Shown here: positions 1,858-42,275 of the stretch, piece after piece
Numbering within the stretch: the stretch's first letter is position 1
Layout of the letters: each line of letters begins with the position of its first letter
NCBI GenBank assembly: GCA_022705345.1
Contig: JAKJEQ010000002.1
Span: 1-44,212 of the forward strand
DNA from: Planctomycetota bacterium
GTDB taxonomy: Bacteria; Planctomycetota; Phycisphaerae; Sedimentisphaerales; UBA12454
Direction: 5' to 3'
DNA: 44,212 bases
Made by a program: the position numbers and the translations under genes
Notes under the pieces: model-generated
Told to the model about the DNA's origin: nothing
The model's input: only the letters and a program-made list of their open reading frames with translations
The model's database searches: none

Positions 1858-1921
1858 TCCTTGTACCTTTCAATAATTTTTTCCAAAAAAGTTTACTGCT
1901 ATGCGCAGAATTTCCGCGCAA

Positions 1922-2039
1922 AATAACTTGAACTCCTGGAAAACTTGCGCCTCCAAAACGCGGTACTACGTTGCTTTAAAACGCGCGCAAGACATGCGCT
2001 GAATAACTTGATCTCCTGGAAAAGATGACTGCCTCCAAA
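1922..2039. repeat. Two ~37-bp direct repeats spaced ~80 bp apart, upstream of the PEP-CTERM gene
   Basis: AATAACTTGAaCTCCTGGAAAA..GCCTCCAAA at 1922-1957 recurs as AATAACTTGAtCTCCTGGAAAA..GCCTCCAAA at 2002-2039. Both lie in the 5' region of the minus-strand gene that starts at 1857. Confidence 0.5.
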
Positions 2040-2229
2040 TAAGCTCAAAACGTAAAAGCGAAATTAAAAAAGAAAGAGCTTGTGTTTCGTGTTTCTCCCA
2101 CCTCATTTATAGCGTGCATTATACCACAGTTAATTGCAAATGCAAGAGAAAAATCTACTTTTTTTTGAGTATAAAAAAGCCCCTTTTTGAGGAGCTTTTT
2201 GGGAATTATAACATGTTTGTCAATTAAAC

Positions 2230-2652
2230 TCAGGAGAATAATTTGCTTATAAAACCCTTTTTGCCGGATTTGCCGTTAATTTTTTCAAGATGCTTTTGAA
2301 CCATGTCCGGGATCTGAAAAGCGTTAAATGGTTTTACGATATAATCGACAGCGCCTTTGGTGATCGCTAAATCGATATCCTTCGAATCTTCCTTGCAGGT
2401 GAGCATGACGACGGGGATGTACATTGTTTTGCTGTCGCGTTTTAGTTCGGTCAGGACTTCCATTCCGTCCATTTCCGGCATGAGCCAGTCGAGAAGTATA
2501 ACATCAACCAGTTCGGAACGTGCAATTTTTAAACCTTCTGCGCCTCTGGATGTGCTTTTAACATTAAAACCTTTGTTTGAAAGAGTGCTGTTCAGCAGTG
2601 TCCTTATTGTGATATCGTCATCTATGACAAGTATTGTGACTTTATCCTGCAT
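2230..2652 (-). CDS. Single-domain response regulator (CheY-like receiver)
   Basis: 140-aa ORF. ILVIDDD acidic pocket, ILLDWLMPEMDG phospho-acceptor Asp context and a conserved K in VKPF. No output domain. Confidence 0.85.
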   Translation of the reverse strand: MQDKVTILVIDDDITIRTLLNSTLSNKGFNVKSTSRGAEGLKIARSELVDVILLDWLMPEMDGMEVLTELKRDSKTMYIPVVMLTCKEDSKDIDLAITKGAVDYIVKPFNAFQIPDMVQKHLEKINGKSGKKGFISKLFS

Positions 2653-2894
2653 ATAGCTCCTGTTTATTCATAAAGATTATCGGCTTTAAAAGTTTAAAAG
2701 TTGAACGAATTTTTATGCCAAAGAATTTTTTTACGAAGTCCTATAAAAGCCGAGTCTTAACTAAAATGAAACGTTATTACTCAATTAAGGTTTTCAGTTC
2801 GGTCTAAACGGCTTGGATAAAAAATACGATTTTCATATAATGAAAGCGAAGGCTGATGTTTAAGTCAGTAATTTTTGGTTCATTTTTGCCCTTT

Positions 2895-2926
2895 CCCGCA
2901 TTTGTCCTTAAATGCGGGATTTTTTT
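2895..2926 (+). terminator. Rho-independent-terminator-like hairpin with no obvious upstream plus-strand gene
   Basis: CCCGCATTT-gtcctt-AAATGCGGG is a perfect 9-bp stem, followed by ATTTTTTT. It lies between a minus-strand gene and the plus-strand SMR gene. Confidence 0.4.
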
Positions 2927-2931
2927 GCGCT

Positions 2932-2960
2932 TTGACGAAATGGCTGCGATGGTTTAACAT
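2932..2960 (+). promoter_or_regulatory. Candidate sigma-70-type promoter for the SMR gene
   Basis: TTGACG (2932-2937), a 17-nt spacer, then TAACAT (2955-2960). It ends ~24 nt upstream of the GTG start at 2984. Pattern match only. Confidence 0.25.
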
Positions 2961-2983
2961 TGAGATATTAAATAAGGTTTGCT

Positions 2984-3301
2984 GTGAGCTGGGTATATTT
3001 ATTTATCGCCGCGATATTTGAGGTCGGTTGGCCGCTTGGTTTTAAATTGGCACAAATAACGCATCATAAGATTTTTTGGATTTTATTTGCCGTAATCAGT
3101 ATGGCATTGAGCGGATGGTTTCTGTATATCGCGCAAAAAGCTTTACCTATCGGAACCGCATACTCGGTATGGACCGGAACCGGCGCGGTTTGCACATTTC
3201 TGATCGGAGTTGTTTTCTTTCACGATGCGATGAGTATGCTTAGATTTTTGGGAATTATTCTTATTGTTTGCGGTATTATTTTTTTGAAGGCTGCTCATTA
3301 A
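2984..3301 (+). CDS. sugE: SMR-family small multidrug resistance / guanidinium exporter (SugE/Gdx-like)
   Basis: 105 aa with four predicted TM helices. The N-terminus MSWVYLFIAAIFEVGWPLGFK carries the conserved membrane-embedded Glu typical of the SugE subfamily. GTG start. Confidence 0.8.
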   Translation: MSWVYLFIAAIFEVGWPLGFKLAQITHHKIFWILFAVISMALSGWFLYIAQKALPIGTAYSVWTGTGAVCTFLIGVVFFHDAMSMLRFLGIILIVCGIIFLKAAH

Positions 3302-3426
3302 ATTGCGATGGCGGGGGGCCTAGCGCACATAAGAGCTTTTTTTAGCGGGAATTGGGATGAAACAATTCTTGATTGAAAACGTAATTTCGATTAAAATTCC
3401 ATCTTTTAACTCTTTAGAGAGTATTT

Positions 3427-4632
3427 ATGGAAGATATAAACCGGCAAATTGAACAGCTAAAACGCGGAACTGTTGAAATTTTCAATGAAAAGGAGCTAAC
3501 CGATCGCCTTGTCGAGGCGGCAAAGGAAAAACGGCAGCTTCGAATCAAGCTCGGAATGGACCCGACCGCGCCGGATATTCATCTGGGCCATACTGTCGTT
3601 ATGCGCAAGATGCGGCAGTTTCAGGATATGGGGCACAAGGCTGTTCTGATTATAGGAGACTATACCGCTCGAATTGGCGACCCGACAGGTGTTAACACAA
3701 CTCGGCCGATGCTTTCGCCAGAGCAGATCGAGAAAAACGCACAGACTTATATCGCTCAGGCGGGCAAGGTGCTCGATACTTCCAACGATAAACTGGAAGT
3801 CAGATATAACGGCGAATGGTTCGACAAGATGAGCCTAATGGAACTCATCCAGCTTGCGGCCAAAAAAACAATAGCACAAATGCTGCAAAGAGACAGTTTC
3901 AAACAGCGGCTGCAAAACGATATCGATGTTTACACTCACGAATTTTTGTATCCGCTGATGCAGGGATACGATTCGGTGGTGGTGAAAAGTGACGTCGAAC
4001 TGGGGGGGACCGACCAGACGTTTAATAACCTTGTCGGCAGAGATGTGCAAAGGGCTTACGGGCAAAAAGCACAGATTGTAATTACTATGCCGATACTTGT
4101 CGGACTTGACGGCGTTCAGAAGATGAGCAAATCGAAAGGTAATTATATTGGCGTAACGGATTCGCCTAAAGAAATGTTCGGCAAAGTGATGAGCATCAGC
4201 GATGAGATGATGGAAAATTATTATACTCTGCTGACAGACATACCAATGGAAAGAATCAAAGAATTGGTTGATTCCGGCAAGACCCATCCGAAAGAAGCGA
4301 AGGTTTTCCTCGGCAAAACCATTATAAAGCAATTTCACGACGAAGCTGCTGCGCAAACCGCTGCCGATGAATTTGAAAAAGTATTTGCCCAGAAACAGTT
4401 GCCGCAGGATATGCCGGAAGTTAAAATATCAAATGAGGCGATAACCGCGGCTAAGCTTCTGACGGCCTGCAATCTTGTCTCAAGCGGCGGAGAAGCGAAA
4501 AGGCTTATCGCCGGCGGCGGAATGAGTATCGATAGTGAAAAGATTAGCGACCCGAATAAATCGATAATACCTGTAAATGGAATGATTGTTCGTGCGGGAA
4601 AACTTAAATTTGCGAAATTGCTGATAAATTAG
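3427..4632 (+). CDS. tyrS: Tyrosyl-tRNA synthetase
   Basis: 401 aa. HIGH motif (HLGH), KMSKS motif present verbatim, and a C-terminal S4-like RNA-binding region (GEAKRLIAGGGMSID). Confidence 0.95.
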   Translation: MEDINRQIEQLKRGTVEIFNEKELTDRLVEAAKEKRQLRIKLGMDPTAPDIHLGHTVVMRKMRQFQDMGHKAVLIIGDYTARIGDPTGVNTTRPMLSPEQIEKNAQTYIAQAGKVLDTSNDKLEVRYNGEWFDKMSLMELIQLAAKKTIAQMLQRDSFKQRLQNDIDVYTHEFLYPLMQGYDSVVVKSDVELGGTDQTFNNLVGRDVQRAYGQKAQIVITMPILVGLDGVQKMSKSKGNYIGVTDSPKEMFGKVMSISDEMMENYYTLLTDIPMERIKELVDSGKTHPKEAKVFLGKTIIKQFHDEAAAQTAADEFEKVFAQKQLPQDMPEVKISNEAITAAKLLTACNLVSSGGEAKRLIAGGGMSIDSEKISDPNKSIIPVNGMIVRAGKLKFAKLLIN

Positions 4633-4658
4633 AACTGTGCAGTCGGATTTTTGGTATA

Positions 4659-4898
4659 ATGGAGTATAACTTTACAAATTATTTTGAAAATGAAGTATTG
4701 CGGAAACGCCCTTATATTAAAAAAGAATGGTGTATAGAAGTGGTAAAAAATCCAATTAAAGTTGAACCGCAGGAAAATAACCGCTTCAGATATTGGGGCA
4801 AAATTGAAGAATTTGGCAACAGAATATTGCGAGTGGTAACGCTGGCTGATAAGCTGACAATACACAACGCTTTTTTTGACAGGAGCTTTAAATTATGA
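4659..4898 (+). CDS. DUF4258-like small protein (putative toxin of a DUF4258/DUF2283 pair)
   Basis: 79 aa. Its stop overlaps the next start by 4 nt (ATGA). The call rests on pairing with a DUF2283-like partner plus size and sequence style, from memory of the family and not from a search. Confidence 0.55.
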   Translation: MEYNFTNYFENEVLRKRPYIKKEWCIEVVKNPIKVEPQENNRFRYWGKIEEFGNRILRVVTLADKLTIHNAFFDRSFKL

Positions 4899-5113
4899 AG
4901 CTGAATTATTATCCTGAAACTGATTCGTTATATATCGATCTTGCTGAAAAAGATGGAACTGAAAGCAGAGAAGTATCCGAAGGTGTTGTTCTGGACTACG
5001 ATGAAAAAGGTGATCTTGTTGGGATTGATATAGATAACGCAAGTAAAAAAATATCGCTTGAGACACTTACACTTGTAAAACTGCCGAGTGAAGTTAAAAA
5101 GTTTTCTGCATGA
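4895..5113 (+). CDS. DUF2283-family small protein (putative antitoxin partner)
   Basis: 72 aa. MKLNYYPETDSLYIDL....VLDYDEKGDLVGIDIDNASK matches the characteristic DUF2283 pattern (Y..e.D.lyi.l ... G.lvGIei..AS). Confidence 0.7.
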   Translation: MKLNYYPETDSLYIDLAEKDGTESREVSEGVVLDYDEKGDLVGIDIDNASKKISLETLTLVKLPSEVKKFSA

Positions 5114-10648: not shown

Positions 10649-11296
10649 TCAAGAATTAGCCAGTAAGGCTTTTATCTGCTTGCGGCGGTTTTTCTCGAAC
10701 TCCTCCGGAGTCATCAAAGGAGTGTGTCTCAGGGCTTTTTGCTTAAGGATGTCGCTGTATTTGATTCTGCCGGTTGGCCCGGAGGCGGAGTTTTCTTCTG
10801 ACGTCTTTGCCTGCTCTTGAGCGGGCAAAGGCAAAGACGTCGCCTTTATATTCATTCTTCTATTCCTTTCTAATAGGTCGAACCGCTGTTCGGGCGAAAA
10901 CGCAATATTGTACGGCGGCGAAGCGCCCAGATGTTCGGTTTGCCGACCGTCCGGCTGTTCGGGCTCAATCCAGTTTATCGGCGTAGAGCATTTGTCGCCA
11001 AAGCACTGCGGCACAATCACTCTTACCGTGTGATGTTTTCCTTTTTTTTCAGAATGCGCATAACCTTTTTTGATGATCTTCTTCTTCGCCAGCCTTCGCA
11101 CGAGCATTTCGACATATCTTTCGCTGACAGCGAGACTTTTGGCGATCGAGGCGTTAGAGCCCCAGAACGGCGAAGGCCAGAAACGACACAGAACTATCAG
11201 TATGAGCTTTTCGGCCACTGTCAAATCATTACGTTCGAGCAGAAAAGCGTACGCTCTCAAAAAAGGCAGAGCTGTTTTTGTTTTGCTTTCAGGCAT
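10649..11296 (-). CDS. Helix-turn-helix domain protein (phage/plasmid replication-initiator-like N-terminus)
   Basis: 215 aa. LTVAEKLILIVLCRFW...SNASIAKSLAVSERYVEMLVRRLAKKKIIKK is a winged-helix style DNA-binding segment. The rest is low-complexity. Confidence 0.5.
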   Translation of the reverse strand: MPESKTKTALPFLRAYAFLLERNDLTVAEKLILIVLCRFWPSPFWGSNASIAKSLAVSERYVEMLVRRLAKKKIIKKGYAHSEKKGKHHTVRVIVPQCFGDKCSTPINWIEPEQPDGRQTEHLGASPPYNIAFSPEQRFDLLERNRRMNIKATSLPLPAQEQAKTSEENSASGPTGRIKYSDILKQKALRHTPLMTPEEFEKNRRKQIKALLANS

Positions 11297-11880
11297 AAAA
11301 AATCTTTCGGTTTCGAGGTAAGTAAAAAACTTTTAAACGGTTCGTTTTTGAAGCATGGAAAATTCAGCGGCGCATATTCCTCGTCGCCCGCCTGCAAGAC
11401 GAATTTATCGCGCATAAAAGCGGCGAGAATTTTGTTTTGAGTGGTGTCCGGCACAGTGAAAATCAGCCTTTCGCCTGTCTGCGGTTTGAACGAAGCTATT
11501 AAACTTGTGCGGTTGTTGGAGGTCCTTCTTGAAACGCCGAAAAAACCGGTGTTGCTTCGGCAGCCTTTGTTCAGGTTGTTCTGCCGGATGGTCGCGATTC
11601 GAAGGTTCTGCCTTCTGTTGTCCAAAGGATTGCGGTTGATGTGGTCGATCACCTTTCTTTTTTTCGGAATCATCAGCATCCTTGCGAGCGATACGGTTTT
11701 TGAATTTGAAGCGAAATAGCCTCGAACGACGCCTTTGTCGAATTTCAGGGCGGTGATTTTTTTGAATTTGTGATAAGGACGGGGCTTTTCGGTGCCGTGA
11801 ACGCGATAATAAGTTTCCTCGTCGAGCAGCAAAGTGCCGAATTTCCGTTCGAGCGTTCTGTAATCCGATGAAACTTCCAT
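11257..11880 (-). CDS. HNH endonuclease with AP2-type DNA-binding domain (homing-endonuclease-like)
   Basis: 207 aa. VIDHINRNPLDNRRQNLRIATIRQNN is an HNH_3-type motif. It is followed by GFFGVSRR....ASF...GERLIF...AAFMRD, which is AP2-like. Confidence 0.75.
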   Translation of the reverse strand: MEVSSDYRTLERKFGTLLLDEETYYRVHGTEKPRPYHKFKKITALKFDKGVVRGYFASNSKTVSLARMLMIPKKRKVIDHINRNPLDNRRQNLRIATIRQNNLNKGCRSNTGFFGVSRRTSNNRTSLIASFKPQTGERLIFTVPDTTQNKILAAFMRDKFVLQAGDEEYAPLNFPCFKNEPFKSFLLTSKPKDFLCLKAKQKQLCLF

Positions 11881-22283: not shown

Positions 22284-22301
22284 TTTTGAAAATGAAATTT
22301 T

Positions 22302-22932
22302 GTTCAGCGGATCTATAAGCCGGGTTCTGTCTCGCCCCGTTACTATTTGTACTGACTGACTGATTGGATAAAATGCGTTAGTAAAAAAGATAATCAGCAT
22401 CGAATCTAAAACGAGAACAATACAAATAGTAACGGGGTTAAGCGACCATTTCTCTGGGGTCGCCATTACTGGCGGCCTCAAGCAGCCTACCCGCTGAAGT
22501 AACGCTCGGGCCGAGCATTTCAGCATACTTGGCCTTGCAGACGGTGGGGTTTGCCGTGCCGATCCTGTCGCCAGAATCGCGGTGCGCTCTTACCGTCCTG
22601 CTTCGCTTACTTTCGTAAACTGGCAGGATTCATACTGTTTTGCTTGGAAGCTACGCAGGATGAACACCATTTCACCCTTACCAATTTGAAATCTCAAATT
22701 GGCGGTATACTTTCTGTTGCACTTTCCCGTCCCGCACTTACTTCATATTCTCGCAAAATGGATTTATTGCCAAAAGAATACCAAGTAAGTGCGGGAGGTG
22801 GCCGTTAGCCATCACCGTGCCCTGTTCTGCCCGGACTTTCCTCCCCGCACCTGCTCCGTATTCTTCTAAGAATCTATTACTTATTAAAAAGAATACCAAG
22901 CAGGTGCGGGGCGATCGCCCGACCCGCTGAAC
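22302..22932 (-). ncRNA. rnpB: RNase P RNA, bacterial type A core with large helix expansions (~631 nt)
   Basis: The reverse strand contains GGAAAGTCCGGGC (P4 5' strand), CAACAGAAAG, GGTAAGGGTGAAA, GGTAAGAGCGCACC, GGGTAGGCTGCTTGAGG and ACAGAACCCGGCTTATAG (P4 3' strand). The ends pair as GTTCAGCGG / CCGCTGAAC (P1). Confidence 0.85.
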
Positions 22933-26849: not shown

Positions 26850-28316
26850 ATGTCCATATCTTGTTTAACAGAAGAGCAATTATTCGAAGCTGTCGGTGCT
26901 ATTAAAGCAACTAAGAGCAAAAGGCCGATCACTCGGACCGATTTAAAAAATTATGTCTCTTCGTTTTTGAATATCAATATCAGCGACCAGAAACTCTGTC
27001 CGGGCCACGATTCGCCGATGGATTATTTATGGCACAGTTATAACAGCGATTTTGACTCCAGCGCTAACGGGGATTGCGTAGTGTGGGCGGGCAGGGGCGG
27101 CGGCAAAACATTCATCGCCTCAATCGCCGCGCTTCTTGACTGTGTATTCAAACCGGGATGCAAAACGAGGATTCTCGCAGGCAGCGAAGAGCAGGCGCAT
27201 CTGATGTATGACAATCTGGCAAGTTTGGCACAGGACCATTTTCCTTACCTGCTTTTTGAGAAGCAAAAAAACAAGTGCCGATTTGTCAATGGTTCCGATG
27301 TCCAGGTGCTTACGCAGTCAATGGCTTCGGTTCGCGGCAGTCATATTCATAAGATTCGCTGCGATGAAGTCGAGCTTTTTGAAAGGCCGATTTTTGAGGC
27401 CGCAAAGTTCATTACAAAAAGCAGCGGCGGCATCGTCGGAGCTATGGAAACTCTGAGCACAATGCATCATCCTTTCGGGATTATGCACGAGCTTGTGGAA
27501 AAAGCGAAAGACAACGGAACAAAAATATTCAAATGGTGCATCTGGGAAGTGATCGAAAATTGCAGGGACAGAAGCTGCGGCCAATGTCCATTGAACAATG
27601 ATTGCCGAGGGCGGGCAAAAAAAGCTAACGGCTTTTATAAAATAGATGACGTAATTGCGCAGCTAAAACGAACAAGCAGGGCGATGTTCGATTCGGAGAT
27701 TCTTTGTTTGCGGCCGTCGCTGCAAAATGTAGTCTTCGCGGAATTCGATCCCAATTTACATATAAAATCTGTTGAATATAATTCCGAACTTCCTCTGTAT
27801 CGCTCGATAGATTTTGGGTTTGTTAATCCTTTTGTATGTTTATGGATCCAGGTGGACAGCAAAGGCGTTGTCAGGGTCATAGATGAATATGTCCAGAGCC
27901 GAAGGACGATAGATTATCATGCGGATGTATTGAAAAACAGAAAGCCTTACAATGAAGAGAAAGTGATAATGACTTTTTGCGACCCGGCCGGTTCGGGCGT
28001 TAACGATGTTACGGGCACAAGCCCTGTCAGTATGCTGCGGGCGAAAGGAATCAGGCTTCGCTACAAACGAAGCTTGGTTCTCGAAGGGGTAGAACTTGTC
28101 AGAAAGGCTCTTCGGACAGGCGACGGAAAAAGCAGTTTAGTAATCAGCTCGCGATGCGGCAATTTGATACAGGCAATGCAGAGTTACCATTATCCGCAGA
28201 GCGGCTCAATTGAAACTCCGCAGAAAGACGGCGTTTACGATCATCCAATCGACGCGTTGCGTTATTTCTTTGTAAATCACAACAGTTTGTCGCCAGCAAA
28301 AACAAGAAATTACTGA
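26850..28316 (+). CDS. Phage terminase large subunit (TerL-like), orphan
   Basis: 488 aa. Walker A VWAGRGGGKTF, Walker B IRCDEVELF, and nuclease-domain acidic motifs IDFGFVNP, TFCDPAGS and YDHPIDALRYF. Good RBS (GAGGAGG) upstream. Confidence 0.8.
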   Translation: MSISCLTEEQLFEAVGAIKATKSKRPITRTDLKNYVSSFLNINISDQKLCPGHDSPMDYLWHSYNSDFDSSANGDCVVWAGRGGGKTFIASIAALLDCVFKPGCKTRILAGSEEQAHLMYDNLASLAQDHFPYLLFEKQKNKCRFVNGSDVQVLTQSMASVRGSHIHKIRCDEVELFERPIFEAAKFITKSSGGIVGAMETLSTMHHPFGIMHELVEKAKDNGTKIFKWCIWEVIENCRDRSCGQCPLNNDCRGRAKKANGFYKIDDVIAQLKRTSRAMFDSEILCLRPSLQNVVFAEFDPNLHIKSVEYNSELPLYRSIDFGFVNPFVCLWIQVDSKGVVRVIDEYVQSRRTIDYHADVLKNRKPYNEEKVIMTFCDPAGSGVNDVTGTSPVSMLRAKGIRLRYKRSLVLEGVELVRKALRTGDGKSSLVISSRCGNLIQAMQSYHYPQSGSIETPQKDGVYDHPIDALRYFFVNHNSLSPAKTRNY

Positions 28317-37049: not shown

Positions 37050-37919
37050 CTACTTTTTAAATTTAATATGACAAATCACTGCCAGCGACCACAGGATATC
37101 AGCGGAGGCAATGAGTTTCGTTTCGTATTTTTCGTTAATCGGGATAAGATGAACGGAGGAACCGTCCATCCTTACCAGCTTGCAAGTTACGCCAATGGCG
37201 TTGTTTATGCGAACTACAGCGGGCATTCCTTCGACGGCGGCAACAGACGGGCTGACAATAACTATGTCGCCATCGTTAATCTGCGGGGCCATACTGTCGC
37301 CATCGACCTGCAAGGCAAAACTATCAGGGAAAAGATCGTGAATCTCGCTGCATTCGACAAATTGAGTGACCTCAAGATCATTGGCGGCAGTTATTGAGTT
37401 TATGACCGAAGCGTTCAGATGGCTGCTGACCAGTTGCTCGATTTGCGTTTCGACGAGTTTTGAATCGGTGCCTATTGCCTTGCTCCACAGGCCGGCAATG
37501 CCGGCGGCAGTTCGGCCGAGAACGGGAATCCAGCCGTTTCTCGTGGAACTTTTTGGTTTTAGCCGAGATTCAAGGGCGGATTTTTCTTCCAGCAACGTCA
37601 GAAATGCGGAAATTGCGTTGGCAGATTGCGGCTGCGAAAGGAGGATTTTCTGGGTTTTTTCGATAATTTTGAGGTTTTCGCCAGAAACATCCCCCGCACC
37701 TGATTTTCGGCCGGTTAAAAGCCAGTTCAGGTCGATGCCTGCAATTTGGGAGATTTTTATTAATATGGGCACCGGCGCAAGGCGGTCTTTTTCATAATAA
37801 CTGTACGTAGAGGGACTTAGGCCAAGCAATTTGGCGAATTTGTTTCGGCCGCGCACGCCGGCTGTCGAAGTTCGGACCTCGATAATCCTCTGTATTATGC
37901 TATTTTCGAGTTCATCCAT
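37050..37919 (-). CDS. CI/LexA-type repressor: XRE-family HTH + S24 peptidase domain
   Basis: FAKLLGLSPSTYSYYEKDRLAPVPILIKISQIAGIDLNWLLTG is an HTH_XRE motif. The C-terminal LQVDGDSMAPQINDGDIVIV....VTCKLV carries the S24 Ser/Lys dyad context. The start is set at the internal MDELEN (37919), not the hydrophobic upstream extension. Confidence 0.8.
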   Translation of the reverse strand: MDELENSIIQRIIEVRTSTAGVRGRNKFAKLLGLSPSTYSYYEKDRLAPVPILIKISQIAGIDLNWLLTGRKSGAGDVSGENLKIIEKTQKILLSQPQSANAISAFLTLLEEKSALESRLKPKSSTRNGWIPVLGRTAAGIAGLWSKAIGTDSKLVETQIEQLVSSHLNASVINSITAANDLEVTQFVECSEIHDLFPDSFALQVDGDSMAPQINDGDIVIVSPSVAAVEGMPAVVRINNAIGVTCKLVRMDGSSVHLIPINEKYETKLIASADILWSLAVICHIKFKK

Positions 37920-38048
37920 AAAAAATATTCGCTTATGCGAAGTTTTCTCTTGCAATATTCGCAAATGCGTATAAAACAAGACTGAAATGTGTAATATTTC
38001 TAAGAATAATAACACAAAAAGGGATAATAGTCAAGGAGCGTTATCAAA

Positions 38049-38364: not shown

Positions 38365-38495
38365 CAGAAAAAGTGCAAAAAAAAGGTGGGGAAAAAGTGC
38401 GAAATTAGCGAAAAAAAGTGCGAAAAAAGCGGAAATAAGTGGTGTAAAAGTATCTGAAAAGTGGGTGAAAAGACGGAAAAAGTGTAAAAATAGAA
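38365..38495 (+). repeat. Iteron-like array: six degenerate direct repeats with ~21-bp period (core GAAAAAGTGYRAAA)
   Basis: AAGTG cores start at 38371, 38395, 38416, 38437, 38459 and 38480, giving spacings of 24, 21, 21, 22 and 21 nt. They are embedded in A-tracts. The ORFs called here are low-complexity artefacts. Confidence 0.6.
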
Positions 38496-38628: not shown

Positions 38629-38656
38629 TTGAATTTGGTTTTTATAATAATATAAT
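38629..38656 (+). promoter_or_regulatory. Candidate sigma-70-type promoter for the four-gene operon
   Basis: TTGAAT (38629-38634), a 16-nt spacer, then TATAAT (38651-38656). It ends ~90 nt upstream of the first gene. Pattern match only. Confidence 0.3.
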
Positions 38657-38744: not shown

Positions 38745-39311
38745 ATGTCTAAAATTTCAAGTAGAAATATGTTACTTTTGATGCTTGGAATTGCTAAAAA
38801 ACCAAAGATTGTGGGTGAAGGAATCAATGGTATTACACGCCTGCAAAAACTACTGTTTTTATTGGAAAAAGAAGGTTTAATTAAAAAAGTAGAAGGAGGT
38901 TATCAGTTTCAAGCATATAAAGCAGGCCCATATTCTCCTACACTATATGATGATTTAGAATTTTTAGAAAATCTTGGTTTTATTAAAAGTGAGGTTTCTG
39001 GCACTGCAACTGAAGAAGAAGCTGCTGACATGGATTTTACATTTGAAGAATTAATGGATGAAGAAGTAAAAACAGCGGACGTGTACGATGAGAAACGTTT
39101 TACTTTGACTGAACAAGGGCAAAACAAAGTTAAAACTTTGATTGAATCAACTGATTATGAACCATTAATTGAAGGAATTAGAAAAATAAAATCAAAATAT
39201 GGTGATTATTCTTTGGATGATTTGCTTTATTATGTTTATACCAAATACCCTGAAATGACTACCGAATCAGAAATTAAAGATCATGTCCTACGTAAAGGGC
39301 GGAAAAGGTGA
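38745..39311 (+). CDS. Panacea/DUF4065 (SocA/GepA-like) domain protein, possible antitoxin/regulator
   Basis: 188 aa. GITRLQKLLFLLEKEG....YQFQAYKAGPYSPTLYDDLEFL matches the Panacea pattern (T.LKLQKLLY ... F.AW..GPV.P.lY) recalled from the family. RBS GAGGGA. AT-rich codon usage. Confidence 0.55.
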   Translation: MSKISSRNMLLLMLGIAKKPKIVGEGINGITRLQKLLFLLEKEGLIKKVEGGYQFQAYKAGPYSPTLYDDLEFLENLGFIKSEVSGTATEEEAADMDFTFEELMDEEVKTADVYDEKRFTLTEQGQNKVKTLIESTDYEPLIEGIRKIKSKYGDYSLDDLLYYVYTKYPEMTTESEIKDHVLRKGRKR

Positions 39312-39913
39312 CAAAAACTTTACTGGAATGGTCGTTAGGTGGTCATGTTGCGATTATTGTAGTTGCATTGACTTTTTACAAATTTGTCTTTTCAGAAATA
39401 GCTGAAAATGTCTTAGAAAAAGGGAAGATGATCGCCAAAAAAATCGAAGCAAAGATATTTTTGGAACTATCTATAGTTTTGAAACCTTTTCTCGACAAGG
39501 AACGCACTAGTTCAATTATCATAGTAAGCCAATGGAATATTGATAGTGAAGAATACAAGGAGCAATGTATAGATATCCAAGGGACTGAACAATACAAAAA
39601 TGCAATCCATGATTTTATAAAGAGTAATACGAATCCGATGTTAGATTTTAGATTTCTCAAAATAAAAATAGATAGATGCCTTTTTTGGAAACGCTACTTA
39701 AAAAAATCTGTAACAATACTTGTTGGTTTCCATTTGTTAATTGTAGCGTTTGAAGTTGTTTGCAAGATATACGGAATCTGTAGTGATAATAAATTAGTTT
39801 TGGTTGTTTTAATTTTGTCATCATTTTTGACGATTGCAAATTGCTTTTTTCCACTTTGGCCAATTAGCCATTACAATGATGATATAGAAGACATTGAAAG
39901 ACTCTATGCTTGA
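39308..39913 (+). CDS. Small membrane protein (one N-terminal and two C-terminal TM helices), no known family recognised
   Basis: 201 aa. The GTG start overlaps the upstream stop (GTGA). TM segments are HVAIIVVALTFYKFVF, VTILVGFHLLIVAFEVVCKIYGI and LVLVVLILSSFLTIANCFFPLW. Confidence 0.6.
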   Translation: MTKTLLEWSLGGHVAIIVVALTFYKFVFSEIAENVLEKGKMIAKKIEAKIFLELSIVLKPFLDKERTSSIIIVSQWNIDSEEYKEQCIDIQGTEQYKNAIHDFIKSNTNPMLDFRFLKIKIDRCLFWKRYLKKSVTILVGFHLLIVAFEVVCKIYGICSDNKLVLVVLILSSFLTIANCFFPLWPISHYNDDIEDIERLYA

Positions 39914-40322
39914 TTTAACAAAAGAAGCGTCGTTGTTACAACCAGTAACAGGTTATATAAAAAGAAAAGGATTCAATGTACAAGGAACAGAAATTCCATT
40001 CTACAATCGAAGCGTTGACATATACGGTTTTTCCAAAAAAACAAATAAAACAATAGCTATTGAATTGAAACTGAATAAGTGGAAGAAAGCCTTTTCACAA
40101 GCAGTCATTTATCAGTTGTGTGCTGACGAATCTTACATTGCGATGCCACATAAATATACTATACGAGTAGATAGAAATTTACTAATAACTTTTGGAATCG
40201 GATTAATCGCAGTAAATGATATTGGCAGGTGCTTCAAAATGATTGAAGCACGCCAATCGTCAGTTGTCAAAAACTATTATAAAAAAAATCATATCGAATT
40301 TCTTAAAAGGTTGGAAAAATGA
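39906..40322 (+). CDS. Small PD-(D/E)xK nuclease-fold protein
   Basis: SVDIYGFS....KTIAIELKLNKWKKAFSQAVIYQ...ESYIAMP fits the hhhD-x(10-15)-hhhExK core with the following helix and strand. The ATG at 39906 overlaps the upstream stop by 8 nt (the track start at 39894 is a TTG). Confidence 0.5.
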   Translation: MLDLTKEASLLQPVTGYIKRKGFNVQGTEIPFYNRSVDIYGFSKKTNKTIAIELKLNKWKKAFSQAVIYQLCADESYIAMPHKYTIRVDRNLLITFGIGLIAVNDIGRCFKMIEARQSSVVKNYYKKNHIEFLKRLEK

Positions 40323-41635
40323 GTAATAAGCCACAACTTATCATTCGAATGGGAAGTCATGCCGAAAAAGAATACATTATGAAATTAAATCATAAAGTTT
40401 TCGATGGAATTGTAATTGGGGCTAACGTAGTGGAAGCAACAGCAGGTGCTACTGCTAGTTTGATTGGTAAAAAATTGAATTTACCTTATTATATCGATCC
40501 AATGACTTATGTTTTCGGTTGTGATCTAGATGGCATCAAATCAGAACAAAAAAAAATGATTCAAGGAAAAAAGAAAACAGTAAGAGATTACAAGCGGTCA
40601 TATTTAGGATTAGCTGATGAATTAGGATATGTATTTGTAAATGCACTAAAAACTGATACATGTATTCAGCCGGACATTTTCAATCCGGCAACTATAAAAA
40701 GAACTTGTCAAAACGTTATAGAATATCAACGCAATAGAATTGTTGAGGAATTTAAGAAAGATGAAGAATATGAAGAATATGCAGATGCAATTAAACCACC
40801 TGCTGGAATTTTTTCGCCATATTTCTATGTGAATAACAGAAGAAGTTTTGAATTATTTCTAGAATTAGCTCATGCAACAACAATAATAGAAACAAATTTA
40901 CCTGTTTATTCTGTTTTATGTGCAGATGTAAATTCATTAAACGATGAATCGTTCATCGAAAAAGTTTTAGAAGAAGTCCCTAAAACAGGTATCTACGGTG
41001 TATGGCTTTGGTTTTCAAAATTTGATGAATTCGAATCAAATATGAAGACGCTCAGAAATTTCAAAAATTTAGTTCATGGATTAAGTAAAAATGGCTTAGC
41101 TGTTTTTAACAGACATGGGGGATATTTTAGTATGGTTTTAAATAAATTGGGTATGACCGGCATAAGTCATGGTATTGGTTATGGAGAAAAAAAAGACGTA
41201 TTTCAAATAGAAGGCCCTCCCAATGCTCCAGTCGTACAATATTATTTACCCGATTTGTTTAAAAGATTTGGGATTGATAACATCGAAAGATGTTTCGACG
41301 AATTAGGCGTTACAAAGCCCCAACATTTTCATAATTCTATTTGCGATTGTGTTATATGTAAAGGAGTTATTAAAAATAATATTTCTGAATTTAGAGAATT
41401 TGGAGAAACACATTATGCCAGACTTGAATCTAAAAGAGAAACTCAAACTCCAGCAGCTGCTAAACGCAGCCGTTTCCATTTTTTGATGAACAGAATTAAA
41501 GAAAAAAATTTTATTAATAAAAGCAACTTGAAAGAGATTATTGAAAAGATGCAAGAGTCACAAGAAAAATGGGAAGATCTTGACTCAGTTATCCATTTCA
41601 ATTATTTAGATAATTGGATCAATTCTCTTAATTAA
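40319..41635 (+). CDS. 438-aa protein with a TGT/DpdA-type zinc motif (CxCxxC...H) and an alternating beta/alpha (TIM-barrel-like) pattern; function unknown
   Basis: The ORF itself is solid (the ATGA overlap couples it to the previous gene). NSICDCVICKG....RSRFHFLMNRIKEK resembles the CDCxxC...H-hydrophobic helix of tRNA-guanine/archaeosine transglycosylases. The confidence value refers to this functional family call. Confidence 0.4.
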   Translation: MSNKPQLIIRMGSHAEKEYIMKLNHKVFDGIVIGANVVEATAGATASLIGKKLNLPYYIDPMTYVFGCDLDGIKSEQKKMIQGKKKTVRDYKRSYLGLADELGYVFVNALKTDTCIQPDIFNPATIKRTCQNVIEYQRNRIVEEFKKDEEYEEYADAIKPPAGIFSPYFYVNNRRSFELFLELAHATTIIETNLPVYSVLCADVNSLNDESFIEKVLEEVPKTGIYGVWLWFSKFDEFESNMKTLRNFKNLVHGLSKNGLAVFNRHGGYFSMVLNKLGMTGISHGIGYGEKKDVFQIEGPPNAPVVQYYLPDLFKRFGIDNIERCFDELGVTKPQHFHNSICDCVICKGVIKNNISEFREFGETHYARLESKRETQTPAAAKRSRFHFLMNRIKEKNFINKSNLKEIIEKMQESQEKWEDLDSVIHFNYLDNWINSLN

Positions 41636-41808: not shown

Positions 41809-41816
41809 GAAACACA

Positions 41817-41901
41817 AATAAAAAAGGGCGAACTCCGATTAGATACTTGCAGATTCTTCAAAGAAGCTAATCGACGTATCTAACGGGGCAAGCATATCGG
41901 A
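41817..41901 (+). repeat. ~85-bp direct repeat, copy 1 (contains a 13-bp-stem hairpin)
   Basis: AAATAAAAAAGGGCGAACTCCGATTAGATACTTGCAGATTCTTCAAAGAAGCTAATCGACGTATCTAACGGGGCAAGCATATCGGA. The arms CCGATTAGATAC / GTATCTAACGG pair. Confidence 0.8.
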
Positions 41902-42082
41902 CAAATGAAGATTGACCCATTCGGCTTCGCTCAGGACGGGGATTGAAGATTTGAGAACCGGTAAGATTTGGTATTTTTCAGCGTTGATTTTTTATGGAGG
42001 CCGGATCCTTCGACTCCGCTGCGCTTCGCTCAGGATGACAAAGGGCAGGCGGGGCAGGCATAAAACTAATATCAAAATTTAA

Positions 42083-42166
42083 AATAAAAAGGGCGAACCC
42101 CGATTAGATACTTGCAGATTCTTCAACGAAGCTAATCGACGTATCTAACGGGGCAAGCATATCGGA
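42083..42166 (+). repeat. ~85-bp direct repeat, copy 2 (a third, truncated copy lies at 42217-42244)
   Basis: Near-identical to 41817-41901, with a few substitutions and one missing A. AAAAAAAAAGGGCGAACCCCGATTAGAT recurs at 42217-42244. Confidence 0.8.
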
Positions 42167-42275
42167 AAAGCAGGCAATACGAATTTTAAATTTGAAATTG
42201 AGATTTCAAAATTCAGAAAAAAAAAGGGCGAACCCCGATTAGATTTCTTTAAAAACGTTGACTGATCTTCGAGAT

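Follow-up and report, generated by a model that had tools for sequence, protein, structure and literature searches.

A putatively mobile four-gene cassette from a planctomycete encodes a predicted barrel enzyme with a tRNA-guanine transglycosylase-type zinc site

We analyzed a stretch of 44,212 nucleotides from a Planctomycetota bacterium (assembly GCA_022705345.1, contig JAKJEQ010000002.1, positions 1 to 44,212 of the forward strand), here called the window, with the focus on the largest gene of a four-gene cassette. This gene, gene 4 (40319..41635 on the plus strand, 438 aa with an ATG start), is predicted to encode a TIM-barrel enzyme with a Cys3-His site of the type known from tRNA-guanine transglycosylases (TGTs), and it follows genes for a Panacea-like protein, a membrane protein and a nuclease-fold protein. 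The best reading of the results is that the cassette is an antitoxin-guarded defense or addiction module that attacks nucleic acids, to which we assign a probability of about 0.4. A role in defense or addiction is somewhat more probable than not, and glycosidic-bond chemistry on nucleic acid by gene 4 has somewhat less than even odds.

TGT-fold enzymes act in the formation of queuosine and archaeosine in tRNA and of 7-deazaguanines in DNA (in Dpd systems and phages), and the fold has been remodeled for type IV cyclic oligonucleotide-based antiphage signaling systems (CBASS). The original prediction for gene 4 was built on a CxCxxC motif with a later histidine on a helix, both of which are present; the peptide quoted at the time corresponds to residues 338–396, and the zinc-site segment C342-x-C344-x2-C347-x39-H387 is encoded at 41342..41479 (plus strand). 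We aligned a close set of 35 homologs with 44–63% identity and a wide set of 72 homologs with identities as low as 24%. Residues C342, C344, C347 and H387 were invariant in all 35 sequences of the close set and in all 72 of the wide set, and they account for four of the only eight invariant columns in the latter (D60, P61, Y168, C342, C344, C347, H387 and E395). The conserved histidine is H387 of 'RFHFL' and not the nearer one of 'ETHYARL'. The CDCxxC spelling is shared with the E. coli Tgt, as had been pointed out, which reads CDCYTC. The spacer from the cysteines to the histidine has a length of 39 residues in gene 4, 25 residues in E. coli Tgt and 22 residues in DpdA (CXCX2CX22H; PMC10164549). 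Since the Cys3-His columns are invariant in 72 homologs down to 24% identity, we conclude that the motif is real and under very strong selection, with a conservation far beyond chance.

The structure of gene 4 was modeled with AlphaFold2 from the 35-sequence alignment, with a predicted local distance difference test score (pLDDT) of 92.1 and a predicted template modeling score (pTM) of 0.91. The model is a (beta/alpha)8 TIM barrel with eight strands in barrel order, which were assigned by DSSP to residues 6–11 (beta1), 30–34 (beta2), 57–60 (beta3), approximately 164–171 (beta4), 196–203 (beta5), 227–233 (beta6), 261–264 (beta7) and 279–286 (beta8). The short hydrophobic segments from which a TIM barrel had been proposed (GIVIGAN, YYIDPMTY, IFSPYFYV, VYSVLCADV, GVWLWFSKFD and LAVFNRHGG) coincide with strands beta2 to beta7 of the model. 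Strand 3 leads into an insertion of approximately 100 residues that includes helices and a beta-hairpin, and strand 8 into an 87-residue insertion (residues 291–377) that holds all three cysteines. H387 is located on a long helix (residues 378–401), barrel helix alpha8 if counted by order, and an N-terminal lid is absent. In the TGT superfamily, zinc is bound by a CXCX2C motif in insertion 8 together with a histidine of the terminal barrel helix, nucleic acids are contacted by the insertions after strands 3 and 8, and DpdA is without the lid (PMC10164549). In the model of gene 4, the Cys3-His residues are placed where TGT and DpdA carry their structural zinc, and we propose that the predicted zinc site anchors the strand-8 insertion on the last helix of the barrel.

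A Foldseek search of the model against the Protein Data Bank (PDB) returned Z. mobilis tRNA-guanine transglycosylase at all ranks from 1 to 16 (E 2.6e-5 to 3.7e-4), with approximately 460 aligned columns and template modeling (TM) scores of up to 0.46 (query) and 0.52 (target). Other TIM barrels, including GH10, GH53 and methylisocitrate lyase, appeared from E 4e-4 with approximately 320–370 aligned columns. TGT is thereby preferred over generic barrels by about one order of magnitude, because the extra C-terminal subdomain of gene 4 is also aligned. The top viral match was a putative queuine tRNA-ribosyltransferase (E 1.4e-3). The structure comparison recommended in the original prediction thus gave a TIM barrel with tRNA-guanine transglycosylases as the best matches. 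Neither a non-TIM fold nor a different and already characterized family emerged, and the zinc motif is positioned as in TGT and DpdA.

Conserved polar and glycine residues are found at or just after the C-terminal ends of strand 1 (R10, G12, E16), strand 2 (N36) and strand 3 (D60, P61, T63), and further conserved residues are associated with strands 4 (P167, Y168, F169), 6 (W231, E237), 7 (G267, G268, S271) and 8 (H284, G285, Y288, G289, E290). As placed in the model, this distribution over the ends of strands 1, 2, 3, 4, 6, 7 and 8 is what would be expected of a barrel enzyme that is active. The D60-P61 pair (codons at 40496..40501, plus strand) is at the C-terminal end of strand 3 and invariant, including in the versions from Arthrobacter and Haloarcula. 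The segment H284-G-I-G-Y-G-E290 (codons at 41168..41188, plus strand) was located at and after strand 8 from its conservation and the strands of the model. H284, inside the strand, is kept in 93% of the homologs. E290, one turn beyond the strand, is likewise found in 93% of the homologs (three others have Asp), and every plasmid-borne relative has it. No acidic positions other than D60-P61 and E290 are kept throughout the most distant relatives, including those from archaea.

Three aspartates are invariant in TGTs and DpdA and serve as acid/base on strand 3 (Z. mobilis Asp102, DpdA Asp95), in base recognition on strand 4 (Asp156, Asp130) and as nucleophile on strand 8 (Asp280, Asp256) (PMC10164549). 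The invariant D60 of gene 4 occupies the strand-3 position, matched to Asp102/Asp95 by topology only. At the position of the base-binding aspartate on strand 4, likewise mapped by topology only, there is no conserved acid, and P167-Y168-F169 is found instead. There is also no aspartate at the position of the strand-8 nucleophile; E290 follows after the strand, and its match to Asp280/Asp256 is taken from the strand order. In the proposed check for catalytic aspartates at the strand ends, a candidate was seen by strand order at strand 3 only, and the canonical triad as a whole was not recovered. D60 is a candidate general acid/base and E290 a candidate second carboxylate, and the model suggests that two-carboxylate chemistry may persist in gene 4 while the guanine-reading residue has been lost.

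Taking fold and zinc site together, we consider it probable that gene 4 is homologous to the TGT superfamily. It is likely to found a separate and highly divergent family, a putative branch of that superfamily. The family is large, with 920 representatives at 50% clustering, 738 of which have E<=1e-10.

The three genes upstream of gene 4 set its context. Gene 1 (38745..39311, plus strand; 188 aa, isoelectric point (pI) 5.1) encodes a divergent Panacea/SocA (DUF4065, 'YwgA'-like) protein with an acidic insert. It matched PF13274 with E 1.1e-4 and 23.5 bits, as compared to a gathering cut-off of 25.7, and 13 of 29 members of its family had such matches (E<=0.01, best E 1.3e-5). Some homologs carry a precomputed PF13274 match and the names 'DUF4065' or 'YwgA', and the PADLOC candidate model PDC-M19A matched gene 1 with E 6.7e-14 over residues 30–95 only. 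With 57–74% identity across phyla, gene 1 is the best conserved of the four cassette genes. Gene 2 (39308..39913, plus strand; 201 aa) encodes a membrane protein for which the hydropathy profile indicates three hydrophobic helices, one N-terminal and two C-terminal, a topology that is kept even in the most distant loci. Its sequence is fast-evolving (20–26% identity between phyla), and no family match was obtained in Pfam, PADLOC or NCBIfam.

Gene 3 (39894..40322, plus strand; 142 aa, or 138 aa from the ATG at 39906; pI 9.8) encodes a protein with a predicted PD-(D/E)xK nuclease fold. Residues E11, D42, E57-x-K59, W63, A66, Q69 and D78 were invariant in 24 sequences. The AlphaFold2 model (pLDDT 95.3) was most similar to 3dnx (SPO1766; E 5.4e-6, TM 0.70/0.66) in the Foldseek search, followed by NucS/EndoMS, SfsA and HindIII. 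With this predicted core fold and an intact D...(D/E)xK motif, gene 3 would belong to the PD-(D/E)xK superfamily, in agreement with the adjacent nuclease that had been postulated.

All three junctions in the cassette overlap, with a GTG over the stop codon between genes 1 and 2, an overlap between genes 2 and 3, and an ATGA over the stop codon between genes 3 and 4, so that the four genes appear to be translationally coupled with gene 4 as the last. A promoter-like TTGAAT-16-TATAAT (38629..38656, plus strand) is located approximately 90 nt upstream of gene 1; it is a consensus match only, and promoter-like sites were not more numerous in the region than in shuffled sequences. The order of the genes for the Panacea-like protein, the membrane protein with its three helices, the nuclease and the TGT-like protein was identical in approximately 33 loci, which are spread over at least nine phyla of bacteria. 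The metagenome-assembled genomes with the cassette belong to Planctomycetota, Sumerlaeota, Gammaproteobacteria, Latescibacterota, Acidobacteriota, Gemmatimonadales, Ignavibacteriales, Bdellovibrionales and Chloroflexota. The GC content of the cassette was lower than that of its flanks in 28 of 28 loci, by 7.8 percentage points on average, and by 12.8 points in the window (31.5% as compared to 44.3%). The insertion sites vary among the genomes, as judged from six annotated homologous loci. A retron-type reverse transcriptase, a transposase and prophage-like genes are located near one cassette, and VapBC, HigBA and a type III restriction-modification-like set near another. As possible marks of an integration site, tRNA genes and flanking direct repeats were looked for at the cassette and not found. 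In IMG/VR, only three contigs carry it, with two complete copies close to the contig ends, and it was not found in any of the phage records searched. From composition, gene order and varying sites, the four genes appear to form a horizontally mobile cassette.

Some copies deviate from this layout. Three of them look degraded: L046 has approximately 5 kb between fragments of genes 1 and 2 and a fragment of gene 4, gene 3 is split in L030, and gene 4 is split in L037. These copies could represent either real decay or errors in long-read assemblies. In a 520-aa database protein (P0125), the N-terminus is gene 2-like and is followed by gene 4 sequence starting at residue 62, and there is no gene 3; we rejected this fusion as a domain architecture and consider it probably to be a deletion or an assembly chimera.

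In the window, a LexA/CI-like repressor gene with HTH_3 and Peptidase_S24 domains (37050–38015, minus strand) is divergent from the cassette and located approximately 730 bp upstream of it, a neighbor that is not conserved in the other cassette loci examined. Four degenerate A/G-rich repeats (AAAAAGTGCGAAA...) at 38368–38493 are located in a low-complexity region upstream of the promoter-like site. Downstream, the 760-bp spacer between the cassette and a gene similar to pyruvate:ferredoxin oxidoreductase is occupied by copies of an 89-nt direct repeat (41816–41904 and 42081–42169, 94% identical, with a third, partial copy at 42217–42244). On the minus strand, each copy can fold into a hairpin with a U-run behind it (z -1.8), and these repeats may be terminator-like elements or similar to repetitive extragenic palindromes.

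Distant copies of the cassette were identified on plasmids by tblastn and confirmed with the family profiles (E 1e-36 to 1e-40 for gene 4, approximately 1e-16 for gene 3 and approximately 1e-33 for gene 1). Plasmid pSI-1 of Arthrobacter sp. AK-1 carries all four genes, adjoining a RES-domain toxin; its gene 4 homolog (L064, 5926–7155) has kept D60-P61 and SHGVG..E and contains no cysteines. Plasmids of Haloarcula sp. JP-L23 (L063, 5032–7278) and H. sinaiiensis ATCC 33800 (L065, 5092–7269) carry three-gene versions in which the membrane gene is absent and CECxxC is kept. The JP-L23 cassette directly follows the gene for a 1421-aa Eco57I/MmeI-type restriction-modification enzyme, and the H. sinaiiensis cassette directly precedes the gene for a SIR2_2 protein. 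The RefSeq name of the Haloarcula gene 1 homolog is 'SocA domain-containing'. On the H. sinaiiensis plasmid, no gene is listed for positions 1900–5092, where a pseudogene may have been overlooked. Since the Haloarcula versions are without the membrane gene, the conserved core consists of the Panacea-like protein, the nuclease and the TGT-like protein. The cassette keeps the company of defense and toxin-antitoxin islands.

With regard to substrate, chemistry, partners of inhibition and biological role, we infer the following. Gene 4 would act on a flipped-out nucleotide, with Asp60 and Glu290 breaking the glycosidic bond in either base excision or base exchange. It need not use guanine or a 7-deazaguanine, since the guanine-binding aspartate of strand 4 is missing. 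The gene 3 nuclease would cut the strand that gene 4 has damaged or marked, the two enzymes working as one unit, and the acidic Panacea-type protein of gene 1 would restrain this effector pair in the same manner as Panacea antitoxins restrain their toxins. Gene 2 may contribute, with its membrane protein, an optional second effector or an anchor. As a whole, the cassette would be a self-contained, mobile, toxin-antitoxin-like module for (abortive) defense or for addiction. Gene 4 had been proposed to be either a base-exchange enzyme or an effector paired with the adjacent nuclease. The neighbor indeed has a predicted nuclease fold, base exchange is a putative activity, and the context of a Panacea-like protein, a membrane protein and a mobile cassette had been missed.

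A number of observations weigh against this interpretation, most of which concern the relationship of gene 4 to TGTs. HMMER searches of gene 4 against Pfam, NCBIfam, PADLOC and PHROGs assigned it to no family, and the 72 family members gave scattered chance matches only. Searches of the PDB sequences with phmmer and hmmsearch were empty for gene 4 alone and for the profile of the close set. In local hhalign comparisons with an alignment of seven bacterial Tgt sequences, the probability was 9.7% (E 0.003) for gene 4 and 18% for its C-terminal part. Both runs paired the CxCxxC of gene 4 with that of Tgt, and H387 with the zinc-ligand histidine. The register in the barrel placed the 'GYGE' after strand 8 on the 'AVGE' of Tgt and left the GxDxFDC stretch with the catalytic aspartate of Tgt opposite a gap; we judged this register unreliable and have used the zinc-motif part only. 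Against the single E. coli Tgt, the CDCxxC motif alone was aligned. The global mode of hhalign was meaningless. A comparison with an alignment of phage DpdA sequences, which are without the CxCxxC motif, gave no signal.

The structural evidence has similar weak points. The TM-scores of the gene 4 model to TGT are modest and the root-mean-square deviation is high, the DpdA structure 7ui4 was not among the 50 best Foldseek matches, and both the zinc geometry and the equivalences of D60 and E290 are derived from the order of the strands. A few members of the family have other residues in place of H284, and a few in place of E290, and the zinc knuckle has been lost altogether in the cysteine-free Arthrobacter relative. 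With regard to the cassette, the score of gene 1 is below the Pfam gathering threshold, its top rank in conservation is unusual for an antitoxin, and several loci have purely housekeeping neighbors. Of the TGT/DpdA-like enzyme originally proposed, the fold, the placement of the zinc site and the first ranks of TGT in Foldseek stand, and a significant match of sequences or profiles does not, with hhalign probabilities of 10–18%.

Among the alternatives, a minimal Dpd-like restriction-modification system, in which gene 4 labels the host DNA as self with preQ0 taken from the queuosine/archaeosine pathway of the host or with another non-canonical base, gene 3 cuts DNA that comes in unmarked and gene 1 acts as regulator, survives best, and we regard it as unlikely. 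It would account for a TGT-type fold with a zinc site as in DpdA and for an active-looking nuclease encoded next door. There is also precedent, in that Dpd systems and phage DpdA modify DNA (PMC10164549) and a DNA-marking role in BRC systems has been proposed for TGT homologs without DpdB and DpdC (PMC12839542). However, folE, queC, queD, queE, queA, tgt, dpdA, dpdB and dpdC were not found in the window: no match better than E 0.3 was obtained by tblastn with queries from phage 9g and E. coli, and the 20 largest other open reading frames (ORFs) matched only housekeeping genes in Pfam. The earlier statement that no queC/D/E/folE or dpdB/C-like genes are present therefore holds for the 44-kb window by tblastn and Pfam, and not genome-wide. 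The que, folE, dpdB and dpdC genes were not found in the annotated flanks of the six homologous loci either. Moreover, the strand-4 aspartate of all TGTs and DpdA appears to have been replaced by P-Y-F, the nuclease of about 140 aa has no specificity domain, and gene 1 is of an antitoxin type that is not typical of restriction-modification controllers. The toxin or defense reading is favored over simple DNA modification because of the Panacea-like gene 1, the membrane gene 2 and the mobile nature of the cassette.

The absence of biosynthetic genes would fit with modification-dependent restriction, in which none are needed. In this case, gene 4 would recognize hypermodified phage bases, such as 7-deazaguanines, and excise them or revert them to guanine, and gene 3 would cleave the resulting lesions. 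Glycosylases directed against phages with modified guanines are a recent class of defense (bioRxiv 10.1101/2025.10.29.685425), a TGT-like pocket would be a natural reader of 7-deazapurines, and gene 3 shares its fold class with NucS/EndoMS-like nucleases, the sites of action of which are distorted base pairs. The missing base-binding aspartate argues against such a reader, and the Panacea-like and membrane proteins would have no role; we consider this explanation less likely still.

We find it improbable that the similarity to TGT is convergent or too distant to be informative on function, in which case gene 4 would be a generic TIM-barrel enzyme (a hydrolase, an aldolase-like or a repair enzyme) whose zinc knuckle is unrelated, and the cassette would serve DNA repair or metabolism and not conflict. 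GH10, GH53 and methylisocitrate lyase were close behind TGT in the Foldseek search, and the profile of the wide set had a GH53 galactanase (E 0.05) as its sole match in the PDB. The function of 3dnx, the structure nearest to gene 3, is unknown, and some cassette loci are located amid housekeeping genes. However, only the TGT matches cover the C-terminal zinc subdomain (approximately 460 as compared to 350 columns), and the order CxCxxC...His with its placement at strand 8 and helix 8 is specific to TGT and DpdA. The aligned nucleophile glutamate of GH53 falls on a column that is not conserved in the family, and we rejected a GH53 identity for gene 4. The low GC content in 28 of 28 loci, the variable sites, the plasmid carriage and the defense and toxin-antitoxin neighbors speak against a housekeeping role. 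Finally, a non-catalytic or protein-directed TGT-like scaffold with a partner or modified protein as its ligand in place of nucleic acid, for which Cap10 (a TGT fold repurposed for protein binding in immunity; bioRxiv 10.1101/2025.04.06.647259) and eukaryotic QTRT2 are models and with which the incomplete aspartate triad would agree, is very improbable, given that Cap10 has lost the zinc site and nucleic-acid surface while the zinc site of gene 4 is invariant in its family, that there is no QueC-like or CD-NTase partner in the cassette, and that the barrel is densely conserved on its catalytic face, which speaks for an enzyme.

Compared to known systems, the TGT-like protein of the putative defense or addiction module resembles Tgt of Z. 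mobilis and E. coli (PF01702) in its (beta/alpha)8 barrel, the placement of CxCxxC...His and the insertions after strands 3 and 8. It differs from Tgt in that a beta-sheet lid at the N-terminus and the strand-4 aspartate are missing, in a Glu instead of an Asp after strand 8, and in its location in a mobile cassette beside a nuclease and not next to queA. With DpdA (7ui4; PMC10164549), it shares the missing lid, a large strand-8 insertion pinned by Cys3-His, a similar size (436 aa in S. Montevideo) and, putatively, the use of a TGT-superfamily enzyme in genetic conflict. DpdA, however, has kept all three catalytic and base-binding aspartates, depends on the ATPase DpdB and is linked to DpdC, DpdD-K or genes for preQ0 synthesis. 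The partners that define a Dpd system (the ParB-like ATPase DpdB, DpdC, and DpdD-K or folE/queD/queE/queC) were found neither in the window nor in the six loci. Cap10 of type IV CBASS (bioRxiv 10.1101/2025.04.06.647259) is likewise a TGT-fold protein in an anti-phage system, but neither the zinc site nor the tRNA-binding surface has been kept in it, and it is partnered by the QueC-like Cap9 and a CD-NTase, neither of which is among the cassette genes.

The Panacea/DUF4065-like domain of gene 1 and the overlapping gene 2, with its C-terminal transmembrane helices like those of validated membrane-targeting PanT toxins, are reminiscent of PanA-PanT, in which Panacea antitoxins bind directly to toxins of diverse kinds and thereby neutralize them, among them membrane toxins from the gene just downstream (PMC8832971). 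PanAT systems consist of two, rarely three, genes, whereas the cassette has two further obligatory enzymes and its Panacea match is weak. Gene 3 resembles SPO1766 (3dnx) and NucS/EndoMS (2vld, 5gke) in fold and in the signature E...D...ExK...Q, but with 15–19% identity and without the N-terminal DNA-binding/dimerization domain of NucS. None of the known TGT folds in genetic conflicts (DpdA, Cap10 and the BRC TGT) has the partner set of the cassette. We found no description of the cassette in the literature searched, although such an absence is no proof of its being undescribed.

Elsewhere in the window, a class A RNase P RNA (22300–22930, minus strand; 240.8 bits) spans 631 nt as compared to 367 positions in the model and therefore carries large insertions. 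A lone ORF similar to terminase large subunits (Terminase_6N/6C; 26850–28316, plus strand) is located among chromosomal genes and may have been left behind by a prophage. Two ORFs, one with HNH_3 and one with HTH_36, are found at 10649–11880 (minus strand).

The gene 4 family is a large family named by no family library, with the zinc-pinned architecture of the TGT superfamily and a different active-site make-up, locked in a compact mobile cassette that ranges from Planctomycetota to haloarchaea. As a tentative and somewhat doubtful proposal, gene 4 would be a TGT-derived effector responsible for killing or marking in a new kind of immune or addiction system, cleaving the glycosidic bond of a base other than guanine or 7-deazaguanine in DNA or tRNA, coupled to the minimal nuclease and gated by the Panacea-like protein in both Bacteria and Archaea. 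If true, this would be the first TGT-fold protein that is an effector, as a glycosylase or base-swapper, rather than a modifier. These hypotheses are directly testable, since Arthrobacter sp. AK-1 and H. sinaiiensis ATCC 33800, which have versions of the cassette on plasmids, are cultured strains. If gene 4 excises or exchanges a base, it would provide prokaryotic immunity with a new chemistry, for effectors or for marking, and possibly represent a new activity of the base-editing type.

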